DNA of 64,000 nt from an uncultured Verrucomicrobiae bacterium. Lineage in GTDB: Bacteria; Verrucomicrobiota; Verrucomicrobiia; Limisphaerales; Palsa-1400. The position numbers and the translations under genes were made by a program. Below, piece after piece: positions 19,701 to 56,013 of the stretch. The stretch is taken from assembly GCA_963764165.1 (NCBI GenBank), contig CAVXRD010000001.1, positions 1,216,001 through 1,280,000 of the forward strand. The letters are read 5' to 3'. The notes beneath the pieces are model-generated. The model made no database searches and was not told the origin of the DNA. It saw nothing but the letters and a program-made list of their open reading frames with translations. Positions within the stretch are counted from its first letter, which is position 1; each line of letters starts with the position of its first letter.

Positions 19701-19758
19701 AAAATCGTGCTAAAAAACCTCTGGTAGGTTTTCTGTCCCGCCGCGGAAGTGCAAAAGT
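19701..19758 (+). promoter_or_regulatory. Conserved dyad motif AAAACCT-CTGGT-AGGTTTT with downstream extended -10-like element (copy 1)
   Basis: aaaatcgtgctaaaaaacctctggtaggttttctgt is identical to the reverse complement at 55977-56012 and near-identical to 32715-32748. Confidence 0.8.
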
Positions 19759-19938
19759 AGGCCCGATGAGTAACAAAACACTCATAAATGCGTCGCGGCG
19801 CCATGCCGAAGCTTGCCTCCGCGAAAGCGGCATGGCGGGAGCAGCCAGCCAAAAATGGGTGAGAAGCGCCAATGAACTAATTGAAGCGCAAAGTGCGTCC
19901 GCGGAATATGCCGGAGGCATCACAACGATAAGAATGAC

Positions 19939-20080
19939 CCATCCTGGCAGGGATGGCAGCCGCGGGGTGCTTCGGATGTTCTGCTGGCATCCTTTCAGGA
20001 TGCTGGGGTTATTGGACGTTTTTCCGGTGGTATCGCTTCGCTCAACCACCGGCTGCAAGCCTGCATCCCTGCCGGGATGC
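19939..20080. repeat. Dispersed palindromic repeat (GCATCCCGGCAGGGATGC / CCGGTGG..CCACCGG family)
   Basis: Related copies at about 17622-17725 and 40962-41150. Confidence 0.75.
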
Positions 20081-20190
20081 GGCCACCGCATTCAACAGAC
20101 AGGCTCATTGGCAGCCTTCAGCCTAGAATTGGCGAAAAGCGCCCATGACCATTTTCAACCAAAAACTAATCAAACCAAGGATTAACACTT

Positions 20191-20784
20191 ATGACTCGTG
20201 TAGGAAAAATTGCCCGTTTGCCCAAAGACATCCGCGATGTCGTCAATAAAAGACTTCTGGATGGCCACCCCGCTGCCGAAATCATCGCATGGCTCAATGA
20301 ACAGCCTGCCGTCAAAACGGTGCTGGAAGAGGAATTTGATGGCGAAGCCATTAGCCCAAAAAATGTAAGCAACTGGAAAAATGGCGGCTATCATGATTGG
20401 AGAGAGGAAATCGAAGCCCTTTCCTCGCGCAGCGGCGGCATCGCCTCCTTCATCAACAGGGTCAGTGCCGTCAAACTCATCGCCAAGTCAGAGCTGCCGG
20501 AGGATATTTCCCTATTTCTAGCCGCAACGCTGGCTGTTGAGTGCGAGCAGCTTGATTATATAGCCGACGAAGAAGAACGGATGAAGGCGCTGGGCGCGCT
20601 GCTTGACGCTTATGCCCAATTGCGCGGGGCTGACTTGAATGGAAGCAAATATAATCTGGAACGCCAGAAGCTGGAAGACCTCAAGCAAGCAGCCGAGCGC
20701 CGCCTCAAAGAGCAAGCCCCCAAACAGCCCATGAACCCAAATGAAAAGCAAGTGCGCATCCGTCAAATACTGGGGACGGAATAA
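20191..20784 (+). CDS. DUF3486 / Mu gp27-like protein (putative small terminase-like)
   Basis: N-terminus GKIARLPKDIRDVVNKRLLDG...EIIAWLNE...ISPKNVSNW resembles DUF3486 proteins of Mu-like phages; helical C-terminus. Confidence 0.65.
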   Translation: MTRVGKIARLPKDIRDVVNKRLLDGHPAAEIIAWLNEQPAVKTVLEEEFDGEAISPKNVSNWKNGGYHDWREEIEALSSRSGGIASFINRVSAVKLIAKSELPEDISLFLAATLAVECEQLDYIADEEERMKALGALLDAYAQLRGADLNGSKYNLERQKLEDLKQAAERRLKEQAPKQPMNPNEKQVRIRQILGTE

Positions 20785-20855
20785 GGCAAGAGCTATGTCA
20801 CCAATTCCCGGCAAATGTCACCAAATGTCAGCAAATGTAACCTGATTTTTGAAAA

Positions 20856-21437
20856 ATGAATTCTTCCAAAACGGAACGCAAACCGAAGGCGCATTCACGT
20901 CCGCATCCGCAGACGGAAATCGCCGCCCAGCCGTCGGCATCTTCACCCCGGACTGGCGCAGAAACACCAGGCGCCGCCGCGCTCATAGAGTCGCTGGATT
21001 CGCTGGCGCGCAAGCTCGATAGCTTCTCGGCCGCGTTGGCGGAACTTATGACTGTTCCCGTGAATGCGACAACCGGCAATACAACGGCCGCCGCGAATTC
21101 TCTTTCCGGCCCCAGTGCTATTCCCGGTTCCGCTGCGCCAGCCGGACAATCGTCTTTGCCGGATAGTTCATCACTCCGGGGCGCGCCCGATCCGGCTAGC
21201 TTGCAAAGCAGCGCCGCCAAAGTGTCGAGCCTTGTTGACAAAGCATCGCAAAGCCGCGGCGCATGGGCACAGCAGGCAGGCGCCATTCAAAGTTCTCTGG
21301 AAGCAATCATGGCGTTCCTGGAAAGCGAAGCAGCCATGGAAGAACCAAAGATGGATCTTTCAGACATCATGAGCCGCCTTGGCAATTTGGAGGAACAGCA
21401 GCGCAACCTGCAAATGCAAGTCAACGCCGGCCGTTAA
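20856..21437 (+). CDS. Ala/Ser-rich helical hypothetical protein
   Basis: 193 aa ORF co-oriented with the DUF3486-like gene; amphipathic helices and C-terminal coiled coil. Confidence 0.7.
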   Translation: MNSSKTERKPKAHSRPHPQTEIAAQPSASSPRTGAETPGAAALIESLDSLARKLDSFSAALAELMTVPVNATTGNTTAAANSLSGPSAIPGSAAPAGQSSLPDSSSLRGAPDPASLQSSAAKVSSLVDKASQSRGAWAQQAGAIQSSLEAIMAFLESEAAMEEPKMDLSDIMSRLGNLEEQQRNLQMQVNAGR

Positions 21438-21440
21438 ATG

Positions 21441-24687: not shown

Positions 24688-26370
24688 GAGACTGTCTTAA
24701 AACGTTTTAGTCTGGCCGATCTGGTTATATGGGCACCAATAGGGGCTGTGGAAACGGGTGTCAACTTTTAGTTGTCAGAGCGTGGCTGGCGTCAGCGATG
24801 ACGCCAAGCTTCCCTTTCCCTCCTTTTTTAGGCCGCCATCGCCAAATTTCCTTCAACCGCGGCGGTTTTGACTTCCATTTTCGGCGTCTGGACCCGGGCC
24901 TGCCACTTTTTATAGAGGATTCGCAGGTTCAAGGTGGCGCATAACAAGGCCCATTGGGCTTGCACGGCTTCCAGACCCCAAACTGTCCAACGCCGAAAGC
25001 CGTCGTGTTGCTTGAGCTGCCCAAACCGGCGTTCGATGATCTCTTTGCGCTTTCCATAAAGCGCGGCGGGTCCTGGCTCTTGCAGCCGGGCCCGCATGGC
25101 TTGCACCAGCGTGGTGTGCGGCCACACTTCGACTTGCCGCCCTTTGGGATCGCGGCTGCAGAGGGCGCGCACGGGACAGTCTCGGTGATGGCAGCGGAAG
25201 CGCTCAACGGTCTGGCCTTTCTTGGTGGTCTGGCCTTCGTGGTCCAGAAGGCGCTCTTGCGGGCAGGTGACGGTGTGGGCCGCCTCGTCATAATGAAAAT
25301 GCTGCGTCGCGTAGGCGTTGTCGTGGGCTGGCTTGCCCTCCGCCGGCGGGGCCAGCACATTCATCTGCTGTTCCACGGCCGCTTTCAAGTCGGCCCCGCC
25401 CCCATAGCCGGCGTCGGCGGCGGTGAGGGTTGGAATGGCCGCCGGACCGAGGTTTTGCCTCGCTTCTTCAATCATGGGGACCAGCTGGCCGGCGTCGGTT
25501 TCCTGGCGGGTGGCTTGACAGGCGACCATGATGCCCTCCTGGCTGTCGGCCACCGCCTGGGCGTTGTAGGCAAAGCGGTTGGTGTCGCCGACTTTCATCC
25601 GGCGCGCCTCCGGTTCGGCTGGATGGTAATGGTGGCGCCCGTCGGCCTGCAGCTGGGCCAGGCCTTTTTTGATTTCCTCGCGCAGGGCCTGGCGCTGGGC
25701 CAACCCGGCGGGCAGCCGGCAGCCCGGTGCGCTGGAATCCTGGTTCTCCGCCACGACTTTGAGCTCGATTTCCTCCAAGGCGCCATCCAGCTGGGCCAGG
25801 AGCTTCTCCATGTAAACCTTGCTCCAGCCCTGCGGCCCGCTGCAGGCGGCTTGAATCTTGGTGCCGTCCAACGCTTGCAAGGCAAATCCCACCGCCCCGG
25901 TGCGGAGGGCCAGCTGCACGGTTTGCTTGAAAACCTGGCGCAGGGCCTTTTTGTTTCCGTCCCAGAACCGCCAGAGGCTGTTGTGGTCGGGGGCGTTGAG
26001 CCCCGTCAGCCACAGCAGCGAGACATGCTCCGTGCAGGCGGTTTCCAGCTTGCGGGTGGAGCGAATGCGGTGGAAATAACCGTAAAGCCAAATCTTGAGC
26101 AGGAGGCTGGGGGCATAGGGCGGACGGCCTTCGGCGGCGGCGGGAATGACAAACCCAAGCTGGGGCAGATCCAACTGGTCGACAAATTCGCGCAGGAAGC
26201 GGGCGGGATGGTCGGCGGACACCCAGTCCTCCAGGGCGGGCGGGAGGAGGAACTGCTGTCCGTAATCAGGGGCAATCGGTTGAGCCATATTTGTTGAACG
26301 GCATTGTCAACTAAAGGCTCACATATTGTCAAATACATTCCTCAAAAAACAGAAGTTTTGAGACAATCTC
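24688..26370 (-). mobile_element. IS1182-family insertion sequence inserted in a REP
   Basis: IRs gagactgtcttaaaac / gttttgagacaatctc; 4-bp TSD cgcc (24684-24687, 26371-26374) splitting gtagggacgcctcgccgaggcgtcc. Confidence 0.9.
24828..26288 (-). CDS. IS1182-family transposase
   Basis: GRPPYAP.LLLKIWLYGY, PDHNSLWRF, ALDGTKIQA, YNAQ, ADAGY, RKEIIERRFGQLK. Confidence 0.95.
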   Translation of the reverse strand: MAQPIAPDYGQQFLLPPALEDWVSADHPARFLREFVDQLDLPQLGFVIPAAAEGRPPYAPSLLLKIWLYGYFHRIRSTRKLETACTEHVSLLWLTGLNAPDHNSLWRFWDGNKKALRQVFKQTVQLALRTGAVGFALQALDGTKIQAACSGPQGWSKVYMEKLLAQLDGALEEIELKVVAENQDSSAPGCRLPAGLAQRQALREEIKKGLAQLQADGRHHYHPAEPEARRMKVGDTNRFAYNAQAVADSQEGIMVACQATRQETDAGQLVPMIEEARQNLGPAAIPTLTAADAGYGGGADLKAAVEQQMNVLAPPAEGKPAHDNAYATQHFHYDEAAHTVTCPQERLLDHEGQTTKKGQTVERFRCHHRDCPVRALCSRDPKGRQVEVWPHTTLVQAMRARLQEPGPAALYGKRKEIIERRFGQLKQHDGFRRWTVWGLEAVQAQWALLCATLNLRILYKKWQARVQTPKMEVKTAAVEGNLAMAA

Positions 26371-32713: not shown

Positions 32714-32772
32714 AAAAATCGTGCCGAAAAACCTCTGGTAGGTTTTCTCTTTTCAGATGGATATGCCAAAGT
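32714..32772 (+). promoter_or_regulatory. Conserved dyad motif AAAACCT-CTGGT-AGGTTTT (copy 2)
   Basis: aaaaatcgtgccgaaaaacctctggtaggttttct, then 17 nt after the dyad tgccaaagt (copy 1 has tgcaaaagt at the same spacing). Confidence 0.8.
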
Positions 32773-33158
32773 GCTGCCATGACGACGATAGGTCGAATGA
32801 GGCTCAGCGGCCCAAGCGGTGCGCTTTCGGAACTTCGGAAGCGGCGTGGGATTCTCGCGCCCTGGTGCTTTTTGATTTTTTCGCGGCCTTTTTGCAATCG
32901 CGCCGTCCCGCCGTGTCCGCGCCAGCATATTTTCCTGTGTGCCCGACCACGACGGCTTGACTGCCGCGCCCTCGGAGATTTGCAAATCCCCGGTTCGCGC
33001 CCGCCCCGATCACAATCAGGCAAAGATGGATCATTCAAAGCTGTTCAATGCTAATAAAGACATGAATCACAAACTGAGCGGACCGAATGCAACCAACTTT
33101 GCAAGAAACCGGGATGCGCCCGTCCCCAAATTGGGCAGCAACCCCGCCACTTGTGTAA

Positions 33159-33623
<465 letters not shown>

Positions 33624-41310: not shown

Positions 41311-41628
41311 TCATGTCTTGATTCGATTCAATGCGCGACGCGCTCGATCGCACGGACTGCCTGGCTTCAGATCTGTCGTTCCATCGCCCTTCATGCACGG
41401 CCATCGAACAGTGCGGCCAATTGGACCAGCGATCTTGTGAACCAAATCTCCAAGCCCCTGCCCCATTGAAAACTCCCGCCGGATCGCCTCGTAATCGGAT
41501 TCGCTCAGTTGCAGGAATTGTTCGCCGTTGCGGTCAACGAGTTTTCCTCTTGACAGGCAGGCGTCGAGGTAGCCGGGCTTGCGGGCGGCGGCGGCCGACG
41601 GCGCGTGTTTCATGCTAAGATATTTCAT
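41311..41628 (-). CDS. Small Cys-containing phage-type protein
   Basis: GLGDLVHKIA...C...CDRARRALN motif; ATGA overlap with upstream gene. Confidence 0.7.
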   Translation of the reverse strand: MKYLSMKHAPSAAAARKPGYLDACLSRGKLVDRNGEQFLQLSESDYEAIRREFSMGQGLGDLVHKIAGPIGRTVRWPCMKGDGTTDLKPGSPCDRARRALNRIKT

Positions 41629-42371
41629 GGCCATTCCGCGGCGCCGGTAAATGGATCGTCGGGGGGCGCGTCGCAAGTCTGGCTCGGATTCCAGCTTGAG
41701 CCAAAGCCCGCGAAAACCCCGTTCGTCGGCGTAAGACTCGCCAGATCAGGCAAGATCGACATATTGCCGGATCCGAATATCCCGTAAGGCGGCAAACTCG
41801 CGCCGGGTTGAATAATTCCGAGCCAATACTGCTGCACCTGGATGGTGTCGTCCATCGTTGGATCAGGAATCGGCAGGTCCACGATCATAGGATATTGGTC
41901 ATCGGATTGCTGGGGGTAAATGCAGCCGCGCGCAAACCAGTTGACGCTTTGGCCGCAATTCGGCTCCGGCGAAATGTTAATGCTCGTGCCATACGCGATC
42001 ACGTAGTAAGCGGTCGGCAGCGGCAGGTAGAATTGCGATTTATAGACCGTCGGCACACTGCACGGCTGGCAGCAAACGCACGCGGTATAGTCCGGATTCC
42101 AGCCAACGCATTGGGTGAAATTTTCCGGATAGCCAATGCCCGAGGTGCAGCCATTGGTCGCCAGATTGTCCGGGGAAGTGTGGCCCGGATCGCTGAAATA
42201 GCCTGTCAAGCGATTACCCCAAGGCACCGTGGTGATGTCGTAGGCATTCGTCCAATTGATGATGTTCGTTGGATCGCCACCCGGGCCAAGTTCGGCCCCG
42301 ACGCAGCGCATCATGTAACCGCAATTGGCGCAGCCGCAGGCGGAAGAGGCCGCTATTGTCATGTCAATCAT
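41625..42371 (-). CDS. Cys-rich hypothetical protein (possible tail-tip component)
   Basis: 248 aa, CGCANC and CVCCQPC; position at distal end of tail region. Confidence 0.65.
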   Translation of the reverse strand: MIDMTIAASSACGCANCGYMMRCVGAELGPGGDPTNIINWTNAYDITTVPWGNRLTGYFSDPGHTSPDNLATNGCTSGIGYPENFTQCVGWNPDYTACVCCQPCSVPTVYKSQFYLPLPTAYYVIAYGTSINISPEPNCGQSVNWFARGCIYPQQSDDQYPMIVDLPIPDPTMDDTIQVQQYWLGIIQPGASLPPYGIFGSGNMSILPDLASLTPTNGVFAGFGSSWNPSQTCDAPPDDPFTGAAEWP

Positions 42372-42388
42372 AATACAAAAGCTTTCAA

Positions 42389-42491
42389 GGTAGGGACGCC
42401 TCGCCGAGGCGTCCGGGGTGAGGCATTATTCTTGCGCGGGTCGCGGAAATTATTCACGCGCAACCGGACGCCTCGGCGAGGCGTCCCTACC
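42389..42491. repeat. Host REP pair inside phage-like cluster
   Basis: ggtagggacgcctcgccgaggcgtcc ... ggacgcctcggcgaggcgtccctacc, intergenic. Confidence 0.88.
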
Positions 42492-42501
42492 TTAAAATCC
42501 T

Positions 42502-44928
42502 CTAGGATGTCTCCGTTGGCGTCGTGCATAGAATATAAAAGCTGTAAGTCTTCATGGTGGGCGTTCCACTCACGTTGACGCATTGGCTGTAGCTGACCTG
42601 CTGAAAATAAGCCTGCGCGTTCGACGGCAAATCCGCCGGGCTGATGCGGACGCACCCGCCCGCTGTGCCGCCGCTTCCCAATTGCAGATGGAGAATCGGC
42701 GCATTGGGAGCGCCCAAACCCGAGATGTTCCCGTAGTTCGGCTGCCCGCTGCCGCGAACATCGACGGTAAGGCCGGGATTGCCATGAGCGTAGGAATTCG
42801 ACGCCAAATCCGAGAGGCTCGCGGGAAAAATCTGCAAATCCGGCGCGCGGGTGCCCGGACTCGGGCCGCGCTGGGCGACGCTGTTGCCAAGTTGCGCGCC
42901 TGCCTGCTGATTCGCGTCATTGGTGATGTTCGAGCCGATGAAATAAATTTGCCGCGGCCCGCGATTCGCGCGCAACCGCTCCACCATGTCCCGCGCGCCG
43001 AGATGGGCGGCCGGCCCGAATCGGAGTGTCGTGCGTCCATTGGTCAAGTCGTAGGAAATTTGCTGGACGCATGCGTTCATCGCCGCCCATTCACTGCGCC
43101 CGCCGGAGATGTTGAGGTTGTTTCCCATTGGGCAGACATCGCTCACCTCGATTTCTTGGACGCTGAACGAGCCTTCGAATTGTGGAATTTTGGCGATGTT
43201 GTAAATGAATCCAGCCAAACCGTAGGGAACCACTTCGCCCTGCACAAATCCCGCCTGATGCTGATAAACGCCGCCAGGAATGCTCACCAGCGTCACGCGC
43301 GCCGTCTTCTCGTGATACGGAACGTGCGCTGTTTGAATCGAGCTCGATCCAACTTTGCTAACCTCGCTAATCACCCACTTCGCGTTAATCACCGCTTGAA
43401 CAACCTGGGCCGCTGTTCCAGACGGCGCATTGCCCGCCAGCATCCAGGGCGCGATCTGCCCGTCTGTCAACAAATACTGAAACGTGGAAAGATCCACCGC
43501 GTTTCCGTCATCGGCCCCGCCGGGATCATCCGCCGTCACGGAAACAGACGAGCCGGAGAACAGCGATGGCGTCGCGGCCAGCGTCTTGAATTCAGGAAAA
43601 ATCTTTTGCCAGAACGGAATGGCTGACGAATTTGAACTGGGATCAGCCGTGTTCACCGCCATCGTTTTGATGCTGCATTGAATCAGATTGCTGCTGTTTC
43701 CCTCCATGTCGATCGTCGCGGTGACGCCCGCGAAATCGCGCCCCGCCGCCTCCAGCGCCTGCATGGTGGCGCTGTTGGCGCTGCCGCCGACAAATGCGGG
43801 CGAACCGCCGAACGCGCTGGCGGCGGTGTAAAGCGCGCCTGTCAATCCTATTCCCTCGTAAGCCGCGCCGCTGACGGTTCCCGCGACATCGTGAACCACC
43901 TCCGTGTAAAGGCTTCCCGAGTTTGATCCTGTGATGCGGAACTTGAGCGCCACCGCGGATGGCGTGAGGTCATCGCGTTTCTTGATTCGGAAATTCTCCG
44001 TTGTGCCGACGAACGGCAAACTCACAGCCGGCAATTGGTCGCGCGTCGCAACATGCAACGTAGGCGGCGTGGTGGAGTAATCGAACCACACCAGCCCGTC
44101 GCCCATTGGCCCAATCCATTTTAGTTGCCGCCGCAGCGCCTCCGCGCAGGTTATATCGTTGACAGCGTCGAGCGGCGCGCGCAGCACCGTCCGCATGTCC
44201 GCCGCCGTCGTCCCCGTTTGCGCGCTTGTCTTGCCGGTGGCGGCGTAGCCTGGAATGTAATCGGGAATGAGAAGATTCGTGCCCGGCGTCACGTATAAAT
44301 CCCAGTTCGTCCCATCAATCGCCGAGGTCAGCGCGTCGGATTGCAATTGCGGCGACCCGTAATCAATCGTCGTCTGCCCGGCAACGTAAGCGATGATTTC
44401 GGCGATTTGCTGCCGGATCGACATCAGGTTGGTCGCGTTGCTGCCGGGCACCGTATCGTTGGGGCCGACGAGCGCATTCACGCTTTGCCCAAGCACGATC
44501 TGGCTCCGCCAATCCGCCACGTTGGCTGTTCCATTCCAAGTGAACCAGAGTTTTTGGAACACCAGGCGCTCAAAGAAAAATTCCCATGGCCCGGCGAATT
44601 TCAAATCGAACTTCTCCAGCGCCGGACTTCCGCTGCGAAAGGTTTCGACGCGCCAGCCAATGAACCATTGCGTCCCGCCAGTCCACGAGGTGTTGCCGCT
44701 CAACGGCAGACCGGCGGCGTTGGTTCCAGCGCCAGAGGATGGCGCGCGCCCGATTCGCAGGATGATTTTTCCACCGTAGGGAATCGGATCATCCGCGTCG
44801 GCTGGGAGCAGCAGTTTGCAAGCGAGGTGGTCGTGGGCCTGATTGCCAATCTCGCGCTCGCACTGGCTGATGTTCCAATCCGCCAGCGATTTTTCGACGC
44901 CGTTATACGTAAGTGTGGTGAAGGTCAT
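42502..44928 (-). CDS. Large putative tail hub/tip protein
   Basis: About 808 aa, beta-rich; C-terminal VQQISYDL..G.TTLRFGP motif resembles phage tail hub proteins; position in cluster. Confidence 0.6.
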   Translation of the reverse strand: MTFTTLTYNGVEKSLADWNISQCEREIGNQAHDHLACKLLLPADADDPIPYGGKIILRIGRAPSSGAGTNAAGLPLSGNTSWTGGTQWFIGWRVETFRSGSPALEKFDLKFAGPWEFFFERLVFQKLWFTWNGTANVADWRSQIVLGQSVNALVGPNDTVPGSNATNLMSIRQQIAEIIAYVAGQTTIDYGSPQLQSDALTSAIDGTNWDLYVTPGTNLLIPDYIPGYAATGKTSAQTGTTAADMRTVLRAPLDAVNDITCAEALRRQLKWIGPMGDGLVWFDYSTTPPTLHVATRDQLPAVSLPFVGTTENFRIKKRDDLTPSAVALKFRITGSNSGSLYTEVVHDVAGTVSGAAYEGIGLTGALYTAASAFGGSPAFVGGSANSATMQALEAAGRDFAGVTATIDMEGNSSNLIQCSIKTMAVNTADPSSNSSAIPFWQKIFPEFKTLAATPSLFSGSSVSVTADDPGGADDGNAVDLSTFQYLLTDGQIAPWMLAGNAPSGTAAQVVQAVINAKWVISEVSKVGSSSIQTAHVPYHEKTARVTLVSIPGGVYQHQAGFVQGEVVPYGLAGFIYNIAKIPQFEGSFSVQEIEVSDVCPMGNNLNISGGRSEWAAMNACVQQISYDLTNGRTTLRFGPAAHLGARDMVERLRANRGPRQIYFIGSNITNDANQQAGAQLGNSVAQRGPSPGTRAPDLQIFPASLSDLASNSYAHGNPGLTVDVRGSGQPNYGNISGLGAPNAPILHLQLGSGGTAGGCVRISPADLPSNAQAYFQQVSYSQCVNVSGTPTMKTYSFYILCTTPTETS

Positions 44929-44996: not shown

Positions 44997-47077
44997 TCAG
45001 GGCGCGGAGATCAAATTTGTGTGAGAGCCCGTGATCCAATACAACGCGCATGCGCCCGCGCCATTATTGGAACTCCAGAAAATTCCAGAGCCGGAAATGG
45101 CTGCGGGCGGCGTGGTTCCATTGGCGGGCATTACGATGTTATTTGACACGCCCAAGGTCCCGCTAACCGTGAGGGTGAAAGCGGGAGAGGCCGTGTCAAT
45201 GCCGACGTGGCCACTGTTGGTGGCGTAGAGGACAGATCCGCCGAAACCGGCATACTTTGTCATGTTCAAAAAACCAACCTGAGCCGGACTAAACTGCACC
45301 GTGGTGTTCGTTTGCGACGACCACGGCAACGTCGTTCCGCCCGCATTCGAGGGATAAAACGACAATTGCCACGTCAGCGGCTCATTATTGTAATAGGCGT
45401 AAACGTCTTCGCTCAGGGCTGGGCCGCTCGTTACATAGTAAAGGCCGCTCTGGTTGTAGTAGCTGTTCAGGAACGAGGTAAAACTGGAATTCGTTTGCGA
45501 TTGCAGAAAATATCCGCCCTCGCGAATTTGCGGCATGCCAATGTCCGGGTCGTAAAACCCGGTGCCATCGGGCAGGACGCTGACGCCGACGGAACCGTTG
45601 TTCATGACCGCTCCCGCGATGGACGAGCCAGCCTCCACGTAACCGACCGCAACGCCCGTCATGTTCTCCAAATAGATCGGATACCCTCCAGTGGGCAATC
45701 CGCCCGAAACAATCGTCAGCCCGTCGATCAGCCCCGCATTGCCCACGCCGCCTGTCAAAGAAACAGGACTTCCGCGCCCCGCAACGTAGCTTTCGGCCTG
45801 CACCGCGGTCATTCGCACATTGTTGAACGTGCCTGTTCCGGTGTGGGTGTAGACGGCGTTTTGCGCCCAATTGTCAATTATGCAGTTATTGAAGAACAGC
45901 CCGCTGGTGGTGCTGCCGGCGCCGCTTTGAAACTCAGGCTGCACGTCAACGGCATTCGTATAGCCGCCCGTGTCACCGTAACTGCCCCAGTCAAACGCGC
46001 CCCCGCCCGAGTTCAGAATTTGCCCGCCACCGGAGCCTTCCCAGCGAATCGCGCAGCGCGACTTATGAATGCCGCCGACGCCGCCGAGCGCCTCCCAGCC
46101 CGAATTCAGAATCGTCCAGCCACCCACGTCCACGTTGGCGAAGTTGTTGATGCGAATGCCGTCGCAATACCAGCGAATCCAGCTCAAGTTATATGCCTGC
46201 CAGCCCTGGCCCGCCTGGTAATCCACGCAGCGGTAGCCGCCGTCGAGAAGCACGTTGTTCCAATTGCAGCTCACCGCGCCGTTGATGCCATCGGCGTTCG
46301 TTGTCAAACAAACGAATGCGCCGGCGCTGGGCGGAGTGGCGTTCGTCCAGAATCCGGCGATGTTCTGAAACGTCAGGTAACTCCCCCTCGCCACAAAGCA
46401 ATTGAGGTGAGGTTTGTCCAAACGATGGCGGAAACCAATGTGTCCGGCTGGCCCAACGCCCAAGACCCGGCGCCATCACCGAGGATGGTCAGGTTCGCGT
46501 TCGTGATAATAATATTTCCGCTGACTTTGTATTTTCCGCGCGGGAAATAAATGGCGCCACCGTTTCCCGCCGCCGCCATCGCGTTGGAAATGGCGGCGTT
46601 GTTATCGGTGACCCCGTCCCCGACGCCGCCTGTGGAAGTGATGTTCACATAGCTGGCAATCGATACAGGAACCCACGCGGCGCCATTCCATTCCAGCACC
46701 TGGCCCGCGGCCGCGCCTGATTGCGTCAACGCCGAGGTCGGAAGATTGGTCGCGCCAGAAATATTGCCGCTGACGATCGCAAGGTTTGTCGCGATTTGTC
46801 CGCTGGTGGTGGCATTGGTCAAGTAAGTATTCGTGCCAAAACCACCGAAGGGCGCAATTCCCGAACCGCCACCCCCACCCCCTCCGCTGAATCCAGCCCG
46901 GGTCAGCGCGTTGGTCAGCGGCGTGATATTCGTGTCAAAGAAATTGGTTTCGTTGGGCGGAATGGCGTTATTCGTATTGACGACGAATACTTTGTTGGTG
47001 GAAATCTGCGCCGAAGCGGGATAATCCATGGCGGCGAATAATAAAATCGCGAATAGAATGCGGAATGCGGTTTTCAT
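44997..47077 (-). pseudogene. Tail fibre/spike with pectate-lyase-like beta-helix, split by a single-base frameshift near 46410
   Basis: ORF 46373-47104 (GQVLEWNGAAWVP; GGVGDGVTDN.AAI..A...GGAIYFPRGKY) continues in ORF 44997-46463 (beta-helix, GHVGIDTASPAFTLTVSG). Confidence 0.7.
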
Positions 47078-47108
47078 TTTGGTCGGAAGTTTGAGCGGGT
47101 TCATTTTC

Positions 47109-47735
47109 TTAGTATCCTTGGTCTGAGAGTTGGAGGGTCAGGACGCCGCCGTCGTTTAGAATCGACAGCGTATGATAAAGTCCAGTGGTGGCATCGAGCA
47201 GTTGCGGGACAATCCGCCCCGAAACAGTCGTGTAACGCAATCCGGCCAGGGGCGGAGCGCTGGCGCTGGTGGCGGGGCCGTCCTTCACCGTAAGCGGGCC
47301 ATTCAAAATGGTGATGTTCTTGGCCGGAGAATCAGTCGTCTGGGCCGTGATGCGCAGCCAATAGTTGACGCTGGCCAGCCCGCCGAGGCTAATGGCCGTC
47401 TGGCTATTCGGGAACAAGAATGCAGCGTGATAAAACGGCGTGGTATTGCCGTTCCACTCACTTTGCGTCAGCGACAAATTCATGCTCGCGGCCGCGACAA
47501 AGCAACTCAGCATCGGCGGGTTGGAATCGTTTTCCGCCGCAAAAATTTGCGCGGTCACGGAGGCGACATTCGACAGCGAGGTGAGCAGGGCGCCGTTTTG
47601 GCCCAGGCCGATGTCAATTTCGATGTCGTCGCCGCGATAAAACGAGGGCGGCTGATTGCCGCGATTGAGATCAATAAGATTGCCCGGCGCGGCGACGTCG
47701 CACAGCAGCCGGATGGGAAGAGGTGTCAATGCCAT
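47109..47735 (-). CDS. Putative baseplate/fibre-attachment protein
   Basis: FYRGDDIEIDIGL N-terminal pattern reminiscent of BppU-like domains; position before the fibre gene. Confidence 0.5.
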   Translation of the reverse strand: MALTPLPIRLLCDVAAPGNLIDLNRGNQPPSFYRGDDIEIDIGLGQNGALLTSLSNVASVTAQIFAAENDSNPPMLSCFVAAASMNLSLTQSEWNGNTTPFYHAAFLFPNSQTAISLGGLASVNYWLRITAQTTDSPAKNITILNGPLTVKDGPATSASAPPLAGLRYTTVSGRIVPQLLDATTGLYHTLSILNDGGVLTLQLSDQGY

Positions 47736-47769
47736 ATGTCAATAATAGGAATTTTTGGGGTGATGGAAA

Positions 47770-48240
47770 TTACGGGCTGGTCTGCCACGCGCCGTTGCCG
47801 CAGATCGAATAGGTGATGTTGCAGGCAACTTCCTGGTGCGCCACACACGCCACCGATTCCACAACGGCATTCGGCAAATAGCGCGTGATCAATCCAGTGC
47901 CGGATTGGTTGTAAATCGTGATTTCGCCCTGCACCGGAACGCTGTCTGGATGAAACAGAATGAAGGCCAGGCAGGCCTCCGCCGTTTGAAACGACCGCTG
48001 CGCCGTAAAGGCAAAGCGGTTTTCAAGGTTGTAGCGGGGAATGTTCGAGAGATAGGCCGCCCGGAACAGCGGTGCTTTCTGGATGATCCGCTTTTGCTGG
48101 TTGAGGCAGCCTTCCTTGACCTGCCCTCCAGCGCCGCTGGAGAAATTCGTCGAGGGCGCCGAACCGCTAATAAGGCGGATGCTGTCATCGGCCAGGACAA
48201 ACGGCACGGAACCGCCAGAGGGGGTGATGGTGATTTTCAT
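47770..48240 (-). CDS. Hypothetical phage tail protein (distal-tail-like position and size)
   Basis: 156 aa beta-rich ORF with ATGA overlap to the upstream gene. Confidence 0.55.
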   Translation of the reverse strand: MKITITPSGGSVPFVLADDSIRLISGSAPSTNFSSGAGGQVKEGCLNQQKRIIQKAPLFRAAYLSNIPRYNLENRFAFTAQRSFQTAEACLAFILFHPDSVPVQGEITIYNQSGTGLITRYLPNAVVESVACVAHQEVACNITYSICGNGAWQTSP

Positions 48241-48521
48241 GTTTGGCTGAAGTCCGCAAAGAATTGCACGGCGTCGCGCATTTCCAATTGGGAGACGTTT
48301 GGATCCGAGTTGAGCCGGAGACGGAGACGGCGCAACGCCTGCGCCTCAATCGCCCGAATCATCGCCGGCGTGCAATCGCACCAGGCGGCAATTTCACCCG
48401 CGCTGTGAGTCGCGCGAGGTTTGGCTGCGGCGGACAAAATCGCCAGGCCCAGGTCGATGCGCCTGCCTTTCCGTCCGTTGCGAATCGGCGGCGAATCCAC
48501 GTTTTTGTGATCGTGCGTCAT
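48237..48521 (-). CDS. Small protein with sigma-70 region-4-like HTH
   Basis: HSAGEIAAWCDCTPAMIRAIEAQALRRLR parallels T.EEIG.....TRERIRQIE.KALRKLR. Confidence 0.7.
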   Translation of the reverse strand: MTHDHKNVDSPPIRNGRKGRRIDLGLAILSAAAKPRATHSAGEIAAWCDCTPAMIRAIEAQALRRLRLRLNSDPNVSQLEMRDAVQFFADFSQT

Positions 48522-48524
48522 GGT

Positions 48525-49460
48525 TTATGCGAGGGTTAAGGCCGCCCGGGATGGAACGCCGCCGCTGGCGATGTTAAGCGTGCTGACCCACCCCAATTCG
48601 CCCACGCGCAACGGGCGCCCGCCAAAGACGTATCCCGCCGATTTCAACGCCGCGTTGCCAAGGGTAATGGTGATGCTGCTGCTGCCCGAAATCACGAGAT
48701 TGGCTGAATTCGTTGACAGCCGGTAACCGCCCGCGGCTCCCGTTCCCTGCGCATACAGCGCCGCGTCAATTTGCGCCGCCGTCGGCCCGAGCGGTTTGCA
48801 TTTGGCCATCACGCGGCAGCTCGCCAGCTTGAACGCGCGCGTCCGGCCTTGAATGGTCACCGGCTCCAATTTCAGTTCGTGGCTGATCGTCCATTTATCC
48901 TGCGCTTGAAAGCTCGTGAATCCCGCGATGCTTCCCCACGCCGCCGTGAATTCCTGCCGCCCGAGGACAGCCGTGCCGGGAACGGCGGGATTGCTGAACG
49001 ACTGGCCTGTTTGCAGCGTGTAATAGCTATTGGCGGAACTCGCGTTCTGGCCGTTCGCAATGACGCCCCAAATTTCCATGCGGCCCAGCACCGGCCCTTC
49101 GACGCCGAGTTCCAGGTCCGGCATTTTGCCGACCAGCGCGCTCGTCAGCGCGACGACATCGCCGTTGTTGCTGTTCCACGCGCAAGCCACGTCGGAACTG
49201 CCGGGAAAGGACGTGCCGACCGTGGCGGAGACATACGGGAACATGGTCGCCAGCGCAGCCGTATCGTAGAAGAGCGGGCGGCCTTGGGCTTTGACGACCA
49301 TGTCCCGATAAATTTCGTCCACGTCGCCGTAAAGCGAAGTGGCAACAACGTCGGTGACGAGCGCTGTTTCGACGGTGGAATCCTCGGCAAATTGAATATT
49401 CTGGCCATTAAAGGCCGCGTAAGCCGGACCGCCGGCAAGTTGGGATCGGGTGACACTCAT
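48525..49460 (-). CDS. Putative major tail tube protein
   Basis: 311 aa with two similar beta-rich halves, located after adaptor and terminator genes. Confidence 0.55.
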   Translation of the reverse strand: MSVTRSQLAGGPAYAAFNGQNIQFAEDSTVETALVTDVVATSLYGDVDEIYRDMVVKAQGRPLFYDTAALATMFPYVSATVGTSFPGSSDVACAWNSNNGDVVALTSALVGKMPDLELGVEGPVLGRMEIWGVIANGQNASSANSYYTLQTGQSFSNPAVPGTAVLGRQEFTAAWGSIAGFTSFQAQDKWTISHELKLEPVTIQGRTRAFKLASCRVMAKCKPLGPTAAQIDAALYAQGTGAAGGYRLSTNSANLVISGSSSITITLGNAALKSAGYVFGGRPLRVGELGWVSTLNIASGGVPSRAALTLA

Positions 49461-49493
49461 AAATTGTGTATAGTTGACATGTGTTGGATGGGT

Positions 49494-50213
49494 TTAATTG
49501 ACGACGAACGTATCGATCATGCTTCCCTGCAAAGCGCCGTTGTAAGCCGCCGTGCGGACAGTCGTGCCGCCTGCGACGCTGAACGGCGTCGTGTACAAAG
49601 TCGCATTAGGATTTCCCGCCCCGGGGAAACTCGCGTCCGTGGTGTAAAAAATGGCGGAGCCGCCGCCCGGCTGCTGGTCCGAAAGCGTGACCGTGCCCGC
49701 ATTGGCGCTGGCGCCCGGAATGATCGTCCGCGTGAGCGCGGTTAACGCAAACGTCGCGCGCAGCGTCACTGCCAGGGCAATGAAGGGCGAATCTGCGGGA
49801 GTCGAAACGTATTCATAAAACGTGGGCGCGGCGTAAAATCCTTGCAGCGCCCCGCCGAGGAAAAACAACTGAAACGTCTGGGCCAAATTCACCGCAATTT
49901 GTTCGGCGCTAAGCCCGGTGCCATTTGCGCCCTGGTTCACAGTTGGCTGCTCCTTCACGAGAAATTTCTGCTCCAGCGTGCAAACCGGCCCCGCTGTATC
50001 CGGCAAAGCGGATTTCAACGCGGGCATCAGAACTTCGATCGACGCCCCGCCCTTTCCGTTGCGTCCCGAAAATCCCGACAAGGCGCGGCTGACTTCGGTG
50101 TCCATTCGTTTCTCGCGCACTTTGAAAATGGCGATGCTTTGGAACCATGGCTCGGAGAGCAGCTTGTAATAGACGTCCGGCTGGACGGATTCGATTTGGG
50201 CGGCAAGGCTCAT
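49494..50213 (-). CDS. Putative tail terminator/completion protein with C-terminal Fn3-associated (chitobiase-like) domain
   Basis: Follows the gp36-like gene; IFYTTDASFP...ATLYTTPFSV...TVRTAAY is an Fn3-associated Ig-like domain signature. Confidence 0.6.
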   Translation of the reverse strand: MSLAAQIESVQPDVYYKLLSEPWFQSIAIFKVREKRMDTEVSRALSGFSGRNGKGGASIEVLMPALKSALPDTAGPVCTLEQKFLVKEQPTVNQGANGTGLSAEQIAVNLAQTFQLFFLGGALQGFYAAPTFYEYVSTPADSPFIALAVTLRATFALTALTRTIIPGASANAGTVTLSDQQPGGGSAIFYTTDASFPGAGNPNATLYTTPFSVAGGTTVRTAAYNGALQGSMIDTFVVN

Positions 50214-50237: not shown

Positions 50238-50690
50238 TTAGGTTTCGCCGAGCTTGTCAAATGAATGCGTTGAAACGCGATGGCCCCGGCGAATGGCCTC
50301 CACCCGGAAACTAGGGCCGGTCACGTTCTGCGGATTGGCGGGAATCTCCACCTTCTCGCGCCCTTCGCGAATTTTCTCCATGCGCTTGACAGATTCGTCG
50401 TATTGGGCGCGCCGGAAATCGCTCTGCAAATCCGTCTTGGGCAGGCTGCAAAACCACTTCCAGCGAACCATTGCAATGGCGTCGGAGCGAATCTGGTCAG
50501 GCACGGTTCCGACTGGCCCAATCTGGTTTCCGCCGACCAGGATGCCCGCCTGAATTTCAGCGGTGATGGTCGCGAGGATGGTCGAAAGGATCGACGAGCT
50601 TCCCTGAATCGTGTTCAGCATCGTGACTTCGTCCGGGAGGATTTCCGCCGTGACGTCAGCGGCGGCAAGTGTGTTCCAAGGCATAAGCAA
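50238..50690 (-). CDS. Mu gp36/DUF1320-like head-tail adaptor
   Basis: TVPDQIRSDAIAMVRWKW...RRAQYDESVKRMEKIREG resembles DUF1320; position after capsid. Confidence 0.7.
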   Translation of the reverse strand: MLMPWNTLAAADVTAEILPDEVTMLNTIQGSSSILSTILATITAEIQAGILVGGNQIGPVGTVPDQIRSDAIAMVRWKWFCSLPKTDLQSDFRRAQYDESVKRMEKIREGREKVEIPANPQNVTGPSFRVEAIRRGHRVSTHSFDKLGET

Positions 50691-51296: not shown

Positions 51297-52364
51297 TTAG
51301 TTGACTGTGATTTGCTGAATTCCAGTGGTGTGCTGCACGTGCAGGAACTCGTAGTTTTCGACCGTGAGGGCGATGAGCTTGACGCCGACATCGGTGACAT
51401 AGACGGCGTAATCGCCCCCGCCGTAAGCGGAGTTGGCGACGTGCCGCACGAGGTTGCTCGAGTCCATCGGGCCGTCGGCTTCGATGCTGGTGAACAGCAT
51501 GACGTTGCTGCCGATGATTTCCTGCTTGGCCGTGCCGGTGGATTGCTGGTAGCGCTCGGCGTTGATGATGCAGCGATCCACACCGATGGCAGTGGCCACC
51601 TGCTCTTCCGTGAATTGCCCCGCTCGCGCCAGCGCGCCGGCGGTGAGCTGTGTCTCGTAGGCGTTCTGGCGCTTGAGCGCGGCCTGATCACCGTAAACGG
51701 CGACCAGCGGATAGAAGCCGGTGGTGTTGGCCAGGTTGATGATGTCCTGCTTCAATTCCAAATCAGGATTGCTGCCTGTATCCCAAATGGTGGAGGAAGT
51801 GATGGCTGCGGCTTGCAGAAGCGAAACCGCTTCCAGCACAGTGGCGCGCATCATCAAGTCCAGCAGCCACTTGGTGTGGACCTGCTGCCATTCCGGCTTA
51901 TCCTTGAGCTGGTCGCGGTCCAGCAGCACGGTCAAACCGCGATTGGGCACCTGCAAATCCACCTTCGTGGCGACGCGCTGGCGCACGCGCATGAAGTCGG
52001 ACAGGATGCTGCGTTTGACACGCGTGTAATCCACGGTCTGCCACGGCTCGTTTTCGTCGTAAACTGTCAAGCGCACGATGCGGCTGTTGCTGGGGCGCGG
52101 CGGGGCCAGCGTGTCGCGCAATTGGCGGAGGCGGTTGCCGACCATGCCGTCGTAGCTGATGGCAAAGGCGGTCAATTCCTCGATGTATTCGGACTGCCGG
52201 AGCAGCGAATCGTTGGCCAGGCAAACCTGCCCGTGATGCGCGCCGACGTTGTTGGAGGAAATCGCGTTGGGGGCAAAATCGTTGCCCAGCGCGACTCCGA
52301 GGGATTCCAACGCCGCCACGCGGGCGGAATTGGAGAGGACGATGGGGTCTTTCATAGTTGTCAT
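51297..52364 (-). CDS. Putative major capsid protein
   Basis: About 355 aa, downstream of protease and decoration genes; size and position fit an HK97-fold capsid. Confidence 0.7.
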   Translation of the reverse strand: MTTMKDPIVLSNSARVAALESLGVALGNDFAPNAISSNNVGAHHGQVCLANDSLLRQSEYIEELTAFAISYDGMVGNRLRQLRDTLAPPRPSNSRIVRLTVYDENEPWQTVDYTRVKRSILSDFMRVRQRVATKVDLQVPNRGLTVLLDRDQLKDKPEWQQVHTKWLLDLMMRATVLEAVSLLQAAAITSSTIWDTGSNPDLELKQDIINLANTTGFYPLVAVYGDQAALKRQNAYETQLTAGALARAGQFTEEQVATAIGVDRCIINAERYQQSTGTAKQEIIGSNVMLFTSIEADGPMDSSNLVRHVANSAYGGGDYAVYVTDVGVKLIALTVENYEFLHVQHTTGIQQITVN

Positions 52365-53165: not shown

Positions 53166-53181
53166 AGGTGGATCGGTTGAA

Positions 53182-54381
53182 TTAACGGGCCCGCAATTTT
53201 TCGGCGAGGCCGGGGTTGCTGCTCATTACGGCGTGGTGCGCCTTGACGGGATCGGTCTCGCCGCTTTCCTTCATGTGGCGCTCGACGGAGGCGCAATACT
53301 CTTCGCGCACGTCGCCGCTGGCGCGGTGGTTGGAGAGAATTTTTCCACTTTCGGCGCACGCCGTCGTTTTGAAGCGGGCGGGAGCGTCCAGCAAGCTGGC
53401 TGATTCGCGCTCGAAATCGGCTGCGTTTTCCAGCGCCTGAAGACGTGTGGAGCGTTCGGACACGGCCACTTTGCCGCGAGCAATCGCCAAGTCGACGACT
53501 CCGGCGGCACGCTGCGATTTCACCTGCGCGATTTGCGTTTTCAAGCCGTTCGCCTCGTTTTCAAGCGCGGCGGCAGCGGACTTCAAATTCGCGACTTGCG
53601 ATTTGAGATCCTCGTTTTCGCCGGACAGGGTTGCATTCTCGTTGCCCAGCGCCGCGGCCTCGCCGGCGGCGGAGGCGTGGAGCTTTTGCAGGGCTGCGAG
53701 AACCTCGGGTTCGGCCGGGCTGTCGGGATGGGCGAGAGTCGCGCCATTGGCCAGCAGCCAGCCTGCGATGAGTTTCATTTCGGGTTCTTTTGTTGGGATG
53801 TTTTCTTCGGTTGCACCGGCGGGTCTGGCGTTGGCCAGCGATTCCACGCCGGAAATGTTGGGATGGGCCGTCAGGCCCGCGGACAAAAGCTTGAAGGGCC
53901 GGGCCAGAATGGCGTTGCCGCGCCGCCCCATCGGCTGGACATACCAAAGCGCGCTGGGATATTTGCATCCGTCGCGCTCAACGGCTTCGGCGCCGGCAGG
54001 CGTCAAGACGAAATGCGCCTCCAGCCCGCGCTCGGATTTGCGCACCTTGTCGATGGCGCCGATGATTTCCTTCTTCCCTGCGCGCTCCGTCGAATTGGGC
54101 GAGAAGTCCGCCAGATCAGGATGGCCTTTGTAGACCGGAATGCCGATCACGGCGCGGCGAATGCGGCGGAAGAGAGAATTCTCGCGGGAAAGAAGCTGGT
54201 CGGCCGATTCGTGGTCGAGAACCTGGATGAAGTGCTCGCGCTCGATTCGCCCATCTTTTCGGACGAGGCGCGACTTGGGATGCTCGCCAAAGGGCGCAAT
54301 CAGCGCCCAGCCTTCGTCGTCAAGTGAGTATTCATTTGACAGAATGGTCATGTGTTGGGTCATGGGTAAATTCGGGTTCAT
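53182..54381 (-). CDS. Mu-like prohead protease/scaffold (protein I)
   Basis: WALIAPFGEHP, PVYKGHPD, GLEAHFVLTPAG, YPSALW, LLSAGLTAHPNI, then coiled-coil scaffold and VDLAIARGKV. Confidence 0.85.
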   Translation of the reverse strand: MNPNLPMTQHMTILSNEYSLDDEGWALIAPFGEHPKSRLVRKDGRIEREHFIQVLDHESADQLLSRENSLFRRIRRAVIGIPVYKGHPDLADFSPNSTERAGKKEIIGAIDKVRKSERGLEAHFVLTPAGAEAVERDGCKYPSALWYVQPMGRRGNAILARPFKLLSAGLTAHPNISGVESLANARPAGATEENIPTKEPEMKLIAGWLLANGATLAHPDSPAEPEVLAALQKLHASAAGEAAALGNENATLSGENEDLKSQVANLKSAAAALENEANGLKTQIAQVKSQRAAGVVDLAIARGKVAVSERSTRLQALENAADFERESASLLDAPARFKTTACAESGKILSNHRASGDVREEYCASVERHMKESGETDPVKAHHAVMSSNPGLAEKLRAR

Positions 54382-54389
54382 TGCTTTGG

Positions 54390-55835
54390 TTAGGCGGCTT
54401 GGTTTGGAATCGAGTAACCGAGCGCCGGCTCAGTCGCATGCGAACTGTAGAAGCCCGCTTCGTCCACCTGCGGATCCGGCATGTCCGGATTGGCGGTCTG
54501 CGGCTCGCGCCGGGCGTCTGCGCCGGGCGCGATAGGCGTCGCGCTGGAAGAAGCGGCCGGGAGCGAGTGCGTTTCGCGGGGATGGCCGGTTGTATCGCCC
54601 TCCTCCCGGCCGTGGGGTCGGGGGTTGCGGGGAAATTCGAGGCACGGCTCGCCGGGCGCTGGCGGCGTCCAGCGGAAGCGCTTGTAAGCTTCCTTCAAGC
54701 TGATGCGAAGGCCCATCGGCACCAGCGCCTGGGCGCACTGCAAATCCATCGCCGCCGAATCGTCCTGCGGCGCGACCACCGCCATCCAGGCCCGCGGCTC
54801 TCTGTCAAATAGGTAACGGATTACGGGACGGTCAACGCGGTCGTTCAAAATTTCTGAGGCCCAGGCGGCGTCGCGGGCGAGGAAAATTCCGGATTCCTCT
54901 TTTTGCACGCTCGCGCCAACGACGTTTCGCCCGGATTCGCGGCTGCCAGTGGCAAGATCGACGCCGCGATAACATTTGGCGTAAAGGCGATTGACCAGTT
55001 CCACCAGAGGCGCGAACGGGAGGGTGGCGGCGGCGGGAATGCTCGAAAATTTAATGTTTAGGTCAGGGTTGTGAATGACTTGTCCATCGTTGGCCAATTC
55101 ATTCAACACCTGGCGGGCTTCCTCCCACGCAGGATCGCCCTTTTGCGCGCTCGTGACGGCCTCGACAAAACCAGAGCCGTAGCGGGCGTTGAACAACAGC
55201 CAGTCGCGCAGGGAAAGCGACTTCAAGACAAACGCCATGCTGAGCGAGCGCATCAGCCCCTGCCCGACCGCCGTCAGCCATTCCCCTTGCAGGCAAGGCT
55301 CGCCGTAGACGTCAAATATATGTTTGAGATAGCCAAGATAGCCGCGGCGGCTCTCGAAGAACCAAATGGGCGTGTGGCGGAATTCGGCGGTCACCTCGCG
55401 CGCGGCGGGATTATCCACCCGCAGCAGCATTTCGTGGACGCTATAATAATGCGAGTGCGCGGTGGCGAGCTGGTAGAGCAGTTCGCTCACGCCGCCCGAG
55501 GAATCCTGGTCCAGCGCCCGGGTGGTGCGCAGATGGCGGTAGAAATACTCGAGGGCCTGGGCGTGGCGGTCCCCTTCCGGGCTGCCGTCGGAAACGATCT
55601 GCCAATCAAGCCCGGCGAGGTCGGAGGCGCGCTTGTCGGCATTGGCCGAAAGCTCGCCGTCCCGTTCAATCATGGTTTCCCATATTTTGCCGACAACGCG
55701 CAATTCGCCGATGCGGAAGGCGTTGAGGTTGGAGGAAATCCAGTCCATCGAAATGTTCGGCATCGGCGAGTAGCGGAGCCGGATGGCCCATTCGATGCGG
55801 GCCTGGTCAAATTGAGATGCGCCACTGAGGTTCAT
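54390..55835 (-). CDS. Mu gp29/DUF935-like portal protein
   Basis: WETMIERDGEL.A...KR...LAGLDWQI, YSVHEM, LRDWLLFNARYG, LARDAAWASEILN, ALVPMGLRI. Confidence 0.85.
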   Translation of the reverse strand: MNLSGASQFDQARIEWAIRLRYSPMPNISMDWISSNLNAFRIGELRVVGKIWETMIERDGELSANADKRASDLAGLDWQIVSDGSPEGDRHAQALEYFYRHLRTTRALDQDSSGGVSELLYQLATAHSHYYSVHEMLLRVDNPAAREVTAEFRHTPIWFFESRRGYLGYLKHIFDVYGEPCLQGEWLTAVGQGLMRSLSMAFVLKSLSLRDWLLFNARYGSGFVEAVTSAQKGDPAWEEARQVLNELANDGQVIHNPDLNIKFSSIPAAATLPFAPLVELVNRLYAKCYRGVDLATGSRESGRNVVGASVQKEESGIFLARDAAWASEILNDRVDRPVIRYLFDREPRAWMAVVAPQDDSAAMDLQCAQALVPMGLRISLKEAYKRFRWTPPAPGEPCLEFPRNPRPHGREEGDTTGHPRETHSLPAASSSATPIAPGADARREPQTANPDMPDPQVDEAGFYSSHATEPALGYSIPNQAA

Positions 55836-55936
55836 AGTGTGTTCGGGTAGCGGTTGGATGAGCCCAGCGCGGGGATTCGGGCCGCCTGCAGTTCGTTCTG
55901 CCGGCCGCGCGTTTCGCGTTGAGCTTTATGTTTCAT
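55832..55936 (-). CDS. 34-aa leader ORF coupled to portal gene
   Basis: MKHKAQRETRGRQNELQAARIPALGSSNRYPNTL; stop overlaps portal start (ATGA). Confidence 0.4.
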   Translation of the reverse strand: MKHKAQRETRGRQNELQAARIPALGSSNRYPNTL

Positions 55937-55954
55937 GCTCGTCATTACGCAACG

Positions 55955-56013
55955 AGTGAAACATGCATTTATTGAAACAGAAAACCTACCAGAGGTTTTT
56001 TAGCACGATTTTT
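55955..56013 (-). promoter_or_regulatory. Conserved dyad motif AAAACCT-CTGGT-AGGTTTT (copy 3), heading the phage-like cluster
   Basis: Plus strand acagaaaacctaccagaggttttttagcacgattttt is the reverse complement of copy 1. Confidence 0.8.

Follow-up and report, generated by a model that had tools for sequence, protein, structure and literature searches.

A predicted Mu-type late-promoter motif joins the split genes of a likely domesticated, gene transfer agent-like system in uncultured Verrucomicrobiota and recurs across the host genome

Why should nearly the same promoter-like sequence stand at three distant places in one bacterial genome segment, one of them ahead of an operon of phage head and tail genes? 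The segment (hereafter the window) comprises 64,000 nucleotides, positions 1,216,001 to 1,280,000 of contig CAVXRD010000001.1 (assembly GCA_963764165.1) from an uncultured Verrucomicrobiae bacterium, whose genome (G000; 7.0 Mb in 5 contigs, C1 to C5, 97% complete) we analysed with a comparison family of 31 genomes. The original prediction, made from the window, saw here a dedicated regulon that co-activates dispersed particle genes. The reading we prefer, with a probability of roughly 0.62, is that the motif is the Mu-type late promoter of a split gene transfer agent (GTA)-like system, probably activated by a helix-turn-helix (HTH) protein encoded at position 12977, and that about 60 extra copies are mostly gene-less promoter–terS–array derivatives that would serve as dispersed packaging starts. 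Regulon and domestication, considered jointly, are highly probable.

The motif occurs in the window at 19701 (+), 32715 (+) and 56012 (−), as predicted, and its core AAAACCT-N5-AGGTTTT has three exact matches there against 0.23 expected by chance even at two mismatches. Copies 19701 and 56012 are identical over 37 nt (not 36, as first counted), and copy 32715 differs at 2 of 34 positions, as had been noted. The first copy spans 19701..19765 (+; dyad 19714–19732 centred at 19723, TG at 19750, hexamer 19753–19758, start predicted from spacing at about 19765), whereas the third spans 55948..56012 (−; dyad 55999–55981, TG at 55963, hexamer 55960–55955, predicted start about 55948) and heads the head-tail operon. 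The second (32715..32779, +) is a gene-less cassette: the next gene is not a particle gene, as the prediction implied, but glnB, which has its own sigma-70-like site at 33237–33264. A remnant of a dispersed palindromic (REP-like) repeat lies upstream of this copy, and a degenerate stretch of period 10 at about 33031–33062 reaches an array score of 12/18, below threshold. TG-n plus a hexamer (AAAAGT, CAAAGT, TTCACT) follows the dyad at a fixed distance in all three copies, and in each the dyad centre lies 42 nt before the predicted start, abutting or overlapping a poor −35 as in Mu-type promoters. The N5 spacer of the original description has to be reinterpreted: in congeners the dyad has a 1-bp centre (CCTAC-S-GTAGG), so that the 'spacer' is a diverged left half-site.

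Nor is the motif limited to these loci, as a genome-wide scan of G000 returned 64 copies, separated from the background by a clean score gap (23.1 bits, then 16.5). The whole element measures roughly 65–100 bp. From an A-rich left block it runs through the dyad and a spacer, which is 17 nt long in 58 of the 64 copies, to the TG-n-hexamer and a CATG-like start region. In a fixed alignment of the 64 copies, A at −11 and T at −7 are each conserved at 0.89 (0.98 after best-offset placement) and the spacer core at 0.33–0.66; the dyad and the −11 and −7 positions are thus conserved while the spacer core drifted, the pattern expected of selection on a promoter. All copies but one (63 of 64) are oriented into the next gene, including 39 of the 40 in tandem gaps (P 4e-11), and convergent gaps hold none of the 64. 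As for a replication-strand bias, only 41 of 64 copies lie on the strand that carries most of the neighbouring genes, and GC skew is weak. The motif is likely a phage-type (Mu-type) late promoter, a prediction that rests on its sequence and placement. Two other products were considered: peptides translated leaderless from the ATG at the predicted start range from 3 to more than 200 aa with no common frame and were rejected, and a search for structured RNA gave no Rfam match in the window.

The scan placed the motif, as the original prediction had anticipated, before further phage-derived genes. Four copies head such genes, on different contigs: the head-tail operon, a terminase operon and two terS-like genes. 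The other 60 precede unrelated ordinary host genes, read from sequence as presumably gyrB, dnaK, rpsL and others, so that a regulon of dispersed particle genes is upheld but cannot be called dedicated.

The head-tail operon lies on the minus strand and starts with a Mu-type portal gene (54390..55835; Pfam Portal_Mu, E 3e-37) and a head maturation protease of Mu gpI type (53182..54381; Pfam Mu-like_Pro, E 1e-12; phrog_328). These are followed by a likely major capsid gene (51297..52355), placed by gene order and by Atlas matches of 0.98 to capsid clusters, with no sequence match in Pfam, PHROG or PDB, including a profile search against PDB sequences, and by a head-tail adaptor of Mu gp36 type (50238..50684; Pfam Phage_Mu_Gp36, E 1e-5). 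Five genes at 47109..50213 are assigned by gene order and partial homology to the tail region of a Mu-like prophage resident on contig C4, and the same evidence suggests a candidate tail tube at 48525–49460, with tail-gene identities resting on gene order. A tail fibre or spike gene (44997..47104) and three last genes (41311..44928; 808, 248 and about 107 aa), 61–86% identical to prophage genes, complete the operon. The terminase operon, headed by copy C2:560062, has seven genes with the large terminase gene (terL) last. The terS-like genes, of gp27 type, are headed by copies 19701 and C2:1192749; the one in the window (20191..20784, +) matches phrog_426 (E 1.9e-8) and an Atlas cluster (0.96; 51% gp27 members), with Pfam Phage_Mu_Gp27 at E 0.028, below the cut-off. 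Directly after its stop codon follows an array with a 10-bp period and then a T tract (20802..20846, +), a candidate pac-like packaging-start site.

These unlinked modules are joined by a site that changes in concert between lineages, which bears out the conservation check suggested with the original prediction. The same promoter architecture with a lineage-specific dyad precedes the portal gene in all 10 relatives with a matching operon, and in all six readable relatives (G001, G004, G006, G008, G019 and G044) the portal and the terminase operon share the same dyad variant. The G000 variant matches 57 times in G000, 35 in G001 and 10 in G003, with none in 26 of the 31 genomes. The variant of G006 and G019 has 22 matches in the former and 2 in the latter, that of G008 and G044 has 81 and 5 (2 of the 5 exact), and that of G004 has 6, while strand matches, in which palindromes count twice, number 54 in G017, 21 in G022 and 6 in G011. 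Each variant is therefore amplified solely in its own lineage, with 2 to 81 copies per genome; the two in G019 stand before the two operons, and that genome has no extra copies. The operator, altered in concert at between 2 and 81 sites in a genome, offers a natural series for work on the co-evolution of an activator and its site.

Which protein would read this site? The original prediction pointed to the Mor/C activators of Mu and named HTH candidates at 12977, 13512 and 48237. The Mu likeness extends to the late promoter of the resident prophage, which has the same geometry, but the Mor family (PF08765) has no match in G000, a genome 97% complete; the control for this search gave a match in 1 of 14 genomes. 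The activator is instead probably the 152-aa product of 12977..13435 (−), a tandem MerR/Xis-type HTH (HTH_17) protein for which the fold scores are weak. Orthologues (E ≤ 7e-18) occur in 11 of the 31 genomes, each with a conserved portal, and the divergent XRE-type HTH gene at 13512..14375 (+), whose product is the candidate repressor of 12977, accompanies it in 11 of 11 loci, the pair lying beside ilvE in 10 of the 11 genomes. The 12977 family is the fastest-changing conserved gene (38–55% identity compared to 76–82% for ilvE), and HTH_17 is found in 14 of its 19 aligned members. Its profile retrieves one other G000 gene, in the early region of the prophage (E 3e-25), and in G014 and G018 a homologue directly precedes a late operon that is not split, and the 14–20 kb upstream gave no transposase match; both fit an activator that was kept when the early region was lost. 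A fold model of the protein (predicted local distance difference test score 88) has no PDB match at E ≤ 0.001, the best Z score being 5.1 (BldC, Xis) and Mor/C being absent among the matches listed. Of the three candidates, 12977 and 13512 fit the roles of activator and repressor, whereas ORF 48237 has no family match and is found in 3 of 10 relatives' head-tail loci. The gap between the HTH and XRE genes (13435–13512) holds CCCACA/TGTGGGA-like repeats, kept in most of the 11 genomes, which are candidate repressor operators. Two RpoD-type sigma genes pass the family cut-off (C1:1178985 and C2:1637393), and the non-canonical −10 may use the second RpoD-type sigma factor.

The particle genes have been inherited vertically with the host. 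A near-full-length, single-copy portal gene (65–76% identity) is present in 11 other genomes of the 31 with the operon order kept, and capsid identity is 83–92% across 4 genera. Trees of portal plus protease, of the HTH/XRE pair and of host ilvE (9 genomes) recover the same three genus groups and differ within them. Ratios of non-synonymous to synonymous substitution (dN/dS) are 0.05–0.09 in the capsid gene and do not exceed 0.40 in any other gene that allowed the calculation; the values are rough because synonymous sites are near saturation. The homologues belong to genome bins of Verrucomicrobiota, every carrier seen being uncultured, and a close capsid was found in one congener only among 300 sampled genomes of the class. 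Among the sequencing runs listed, no RNA run and one DNA run, at a share of 0.06, contained the sequence. Congener G002 (89% complete) is without portal, terL, HTH gene and motif, and the genes flanking the head-tail operon differ between genomes. Related IMG/VR contigs (62–64% capsid identity) carry terL and portal together in 5 of 7. As in a GTA, head, packaging and tail genes of phage origin are vertically inherited under purifying selection, lie at several loci and have no replication or integration genes of their own. The head-tail, terminase and terS genes therefore likely form a split, Mu-derived, domesticated GTA-like system. Unsplit clusters that pair an HTH gene with a late operon also occur in G014 (L029), G018 (L025, L146 and L147) and G042 (L031); they have dyads of their own, upstream of them no transposase was found, and they are possibly independent or earlier stages of domestication.

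A contiguous genome with MuA and MuB is found in G000 only as a separate element, the complete-looking transposable prophage at C4:317000–352000 (L151, L152), which also encodes Gam. Outside it no MuA or MuB homologue was found in G000. A family-wide search with the MuB profile phrog_296 was uninformative, as it matched 31 of 31 family genomes and 14 of 14 controls. The prophage has a portal that is not of Mu type and lacks the 64-copy motif. The first genes of its late operon are homologous to those of the C2 terminase operon, and the promoter ahead of them has a dyad of its own, separated by 17 nt from the TGTTTCACT that copy 56012 also carries. The identity of 61–86% between its tail-tip genes and those of the window operon suggests exchange between phage and domesticated system. 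Its 508-aa last gene, a possible tape measure, is itself without a family match; at the operon end of relatives it has a partial match of 249 aa in G006, and the result for G008 is ambiguous.

What, then, are the 60 other copies? Arrays with a 10-bp period lie 70–470 bp downstream of 46 of the 64 copies; upstream they accompany 10 of 64, and among 913 control gaps 37 have one. The same search at period 9 or 11 gives 0 and 1. For 48 copies the array belongs to a recognised family, and all 48 arrays are in the orientation of the promoter. Both motif-driven terS genes of G000 end in such an array, likewise those in G001, G004 and G006, a tie to terS like that of a pac site. Sixteen of the 18 non-phage copies in G006 consist of the promoter and the last 160–260 bp of the terS module, array included (78–91% identity), and 16 of 28 full-length copies in G001 and G003 have an array. 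Judged by these alignments, the cassettes descend from the terS module, clearest in G006 and less so in G000; that they act as packaging starts is a tentative proposal. Half of the copies (32 of 64) abut the REP-like repeat, which has 174 copies genome-wide.

In the mechanism that we propose, the XRE protein would, on balance, keep the activator off, and the activator would probably bind the dyad and recruit RNA polymerase at all copies. Heads, terminase and TerS would presumably then be made and host DNA packaged. More tentatively, the phased 10-bp arrays might be the sites where TerS rings load and headful packaging begins, and it is doubtful whether cassettes multiply by riding at the start of the packaged DNA. 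In its most complete form, which we regard as unlikely as a whole, a Mu-derived GTA would have programmed starts, one activator firing dozens of chromosomal promoter-plus-pac cassettes together with the particle genes at their separate loci, with packaging from defined, self-amplifying positions and operator and activator co-evolving in each lineage. To our knowledge, known GTAs package without discrete start sites. If true, dispersed terS-derived cassettes would make transfer directed and able to evolve, and would form a bridge between GTAs and lateral transduction. A GTA-like system would also have arisen independently once more, here from a transposable phage in Verrucomicrobiota of soil and peat, for which our literature search found no description of such a system.

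A number of observations weigh against our reading. Copy numbers from 2 to 81 mean that extra copies are not needed. Only 17 of 62 G000 copies align to the 3′ end or arrays of the two motif-driven terS modules, and no terS gene ends in the commonest G000 array (30 copies). A period-10 array lies within 455 bp in 2 of 25 examined loci of G008 (of 81; 7 within 900 bp), in 0 of 11 in G017 and in 2 of 11 in G022 (copy orientation remains uncertain for G017 and G011), and none was found in the prophage. Genes like terS are present in 29 of the 31 family genomes, including some that have no head-tail operon, and 11 of the 26 complete ones have a 3′ array; the SF6 TerS did not prefer SPP1 repeats (PMC4737164). 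The canonical A at −11 is missing from copy 56012 and most relatives' portal promoters (TTCACT, TTAAAT, TGAAAT), and G014 has no close 12977 orthologue although its portal is 65% identical. As for the particle, the fibre gene of G000 is split into two reading frames at about 46400 when set against its 1244-aa prophage homologue, no homologue of the prophage's 508-aa last gene was found at the operon end in G000, G001, G004, G011, G022 or G044, none of the 6 scanned proteins out of 7 in the terminase operon matches an endolysin or holin family, and the dN/dS values share the roughness given above.

A serious, if less than even, prospect is the view that the regulon is real and the extra copies are selfish or neutral promoter–terS relics, duplicated among REP-rich gaps and decaying, with no packaging role for the host. 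The variable copy number, the adjacency to REP-like repeats, the arrays mostly missing in G008, G017 and G022 and the spread in G000 of a second cassette family with another promoter all agree with it, as do the unconserved targets: only 4 of 74 host targets of relatives' copies match a G000 target (15 further examined loci, counted by hand and having phage genes or no G000 homologue, were dropped). Spacer length, dyad and −10, however, were preserved as the spacer sequence drifted, and the arrays keep their 10-bp phase and orientation; parts retained while sequence changed point to selection. The dispersed repeat that the original prediction had named as its refutation is real, and the regulon holds at the same time. 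A further explanation is that the activator was co-opted as a host regulator whose 60 copies turn on useful host operons (glnB-dnaA, gyrB, dnaK, rpsL, smc) during particle production. The orientation of 63 of 64 copies into a gene and the kept promoter features would suit this, and the 4 shared targets are slightly above chance (P 0.014), but 70 of 74 targets differ between genomes, the shared sites may be old insertions, no more than 55 of 74 relatives' copies face the following gene, glnB has retained a promoter-like site of its own and G019 does without extra copies, which leaves host regulation improbable.

Other explanations concern the particle. It could be a defective-phage weapon or decoy, PBSX-like or head-only, or a helper prophage could complete its tail, given that tape measure and lysin are not recognised and that tail-tip exchange with the resident prophage is implied; since portal, protease, capsid and terL are all under purifying selection, a full set that a pure killer would not need, we consider this unlikely. 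We give very little credence to scattered remains of decaying Mu-like prophages sharing an old promoter. Related phages at 62–64% capsid identity, the differing flanks of the head-tail operon and the one frameshifted gene would fit, but single copies, open frames, low dN/dS, host-congruent trees and the regulator pair beside ilvE in 10 of 11 genomes speak against it, and it is largely refuted because the dyad changes in step at unlinked operons.

Several published systems can be compared with ours. C of phage Mu binds a dyad centred at −43.5, and Mu late promoters are described there as without a typical −35 (PMC2582627). Like Plys, PI, PP and Pmom (PMC2582627; bioRxiv 10.1101/2025.05.02.651988), our motif combines an imperfect dyad upstream of a poor −35 with a recognisable −10 and several late operons under one site, its centre lying at about −42 rather than −43.5. 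Portal, protease, gp36 and gp27-like terS are also of Mu type; unlike in Mu, no Mor/C-family gene was found, the candidate activator is a tandem MerR/Xis-type HTH protein, the operons are split without a transposase and there are 60 extra copies. In the Caulobacter GTA an activator acts at the main cluster and about 18 accessory promoters with a degenerate −35, and an HTH repressor (RogA, acting on gafYZ) silences the system (PMC9632790, PMC11150451). Domesticated phage genes in several loci under an activator and an HTH repressor are common to both, whereas phage ancestry and activator differ, and the long lineage-specific site here contrasts with the absence of a clear GafYZ motif in those accounts.

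Packaging has partial parallels too. RcGTA, described as having no discrete packaging start sites, shares with our proposed mode a headful-type terminase acting on host DNA (PMC7947584). In SPP1 pac, direct repeats span the terS promoter and the start, and the spacing between TerS HTH motifs equals one turn of DNA (PMC4737164); chromosomal pac-like (pseudo-pac) sites reportedly bias transduction in P22 (PMC10996546). Phased repeats tied to a terS gene and its promoter are thus shared with SPP1/SF6; unlike in these and in P22, a gp27-type terS carries the array at its 3′ end, and the copies derive from duplication of the module, not from chance. The Bartonella GTA (BaGTA; bioRxiv 10.1101/2024.11.20.624540) has a biased choice of DNA, as proposed here, and unlinked modules under one regulator, but there run-off replication and antitermination, rather than numerous start sites, produce the bias.

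Around the terS-like gene of the window, a REP-like repeat that matches elsewhere in the genome occupies the leader (19880..20120, ends approximate), and a 139-aa ORF at 19766–20185 is probably spurious because its middle matches some 15 unrelated genome places. Downstream follows a conserved 193-aa gene (20856..21437, +) with no assigned function, a likely regulon member of which four congeners, among the 31 family genomes, have one copy each; the motif stands upstream of it in G001 and G003 and was not seen in about 900 bp upstream in G004. The idea that it is a shortened form of the prophage's 508-aa last gene found no match by BLAST, hidden Markov model or profile comparison and was dropped. 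Insertion-sequence transposases flank the 19701 module at 17821–19209 (IS4/Tn5-like by Pfam) and at 24828–26288, the latter presumably so by our own reading.

Elsewhere in G000, a lipase/esterase gene (C2:560783–561592) takes the expected lysis-gene place in the terminase operon; it occurs also in related phages and is missing in G001. Just past that operon, a cassette that has lost its dyad and retains −10 and array (C2:564950–565130) adjoins a toxin–antitoxin-like pair. Copies C1:182837 and C1:678521 precede what we take from sequence to be cas4/cas1-cas2-like and imuA-imuB-like pairs. The second cassette family consists of another terS-like gene in seven near-identical copies (C4:77602, C5:50381, C2:2574048, C2:1835080, C3:755698, C2:1331993 and C1:1576163) with a sigma-70-type promoter and no motif, and about 45 arrays of TTGCACCCTA type that lack the motif stand in inverted orientation ahead of this gene or of what remains of its promoter. 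In G006, three extra terL copies (L022–L024) each lie near a terS-like gene that ends in its own distinct 10-bp array, and one of these array units resembles the left block of the G000 motif.

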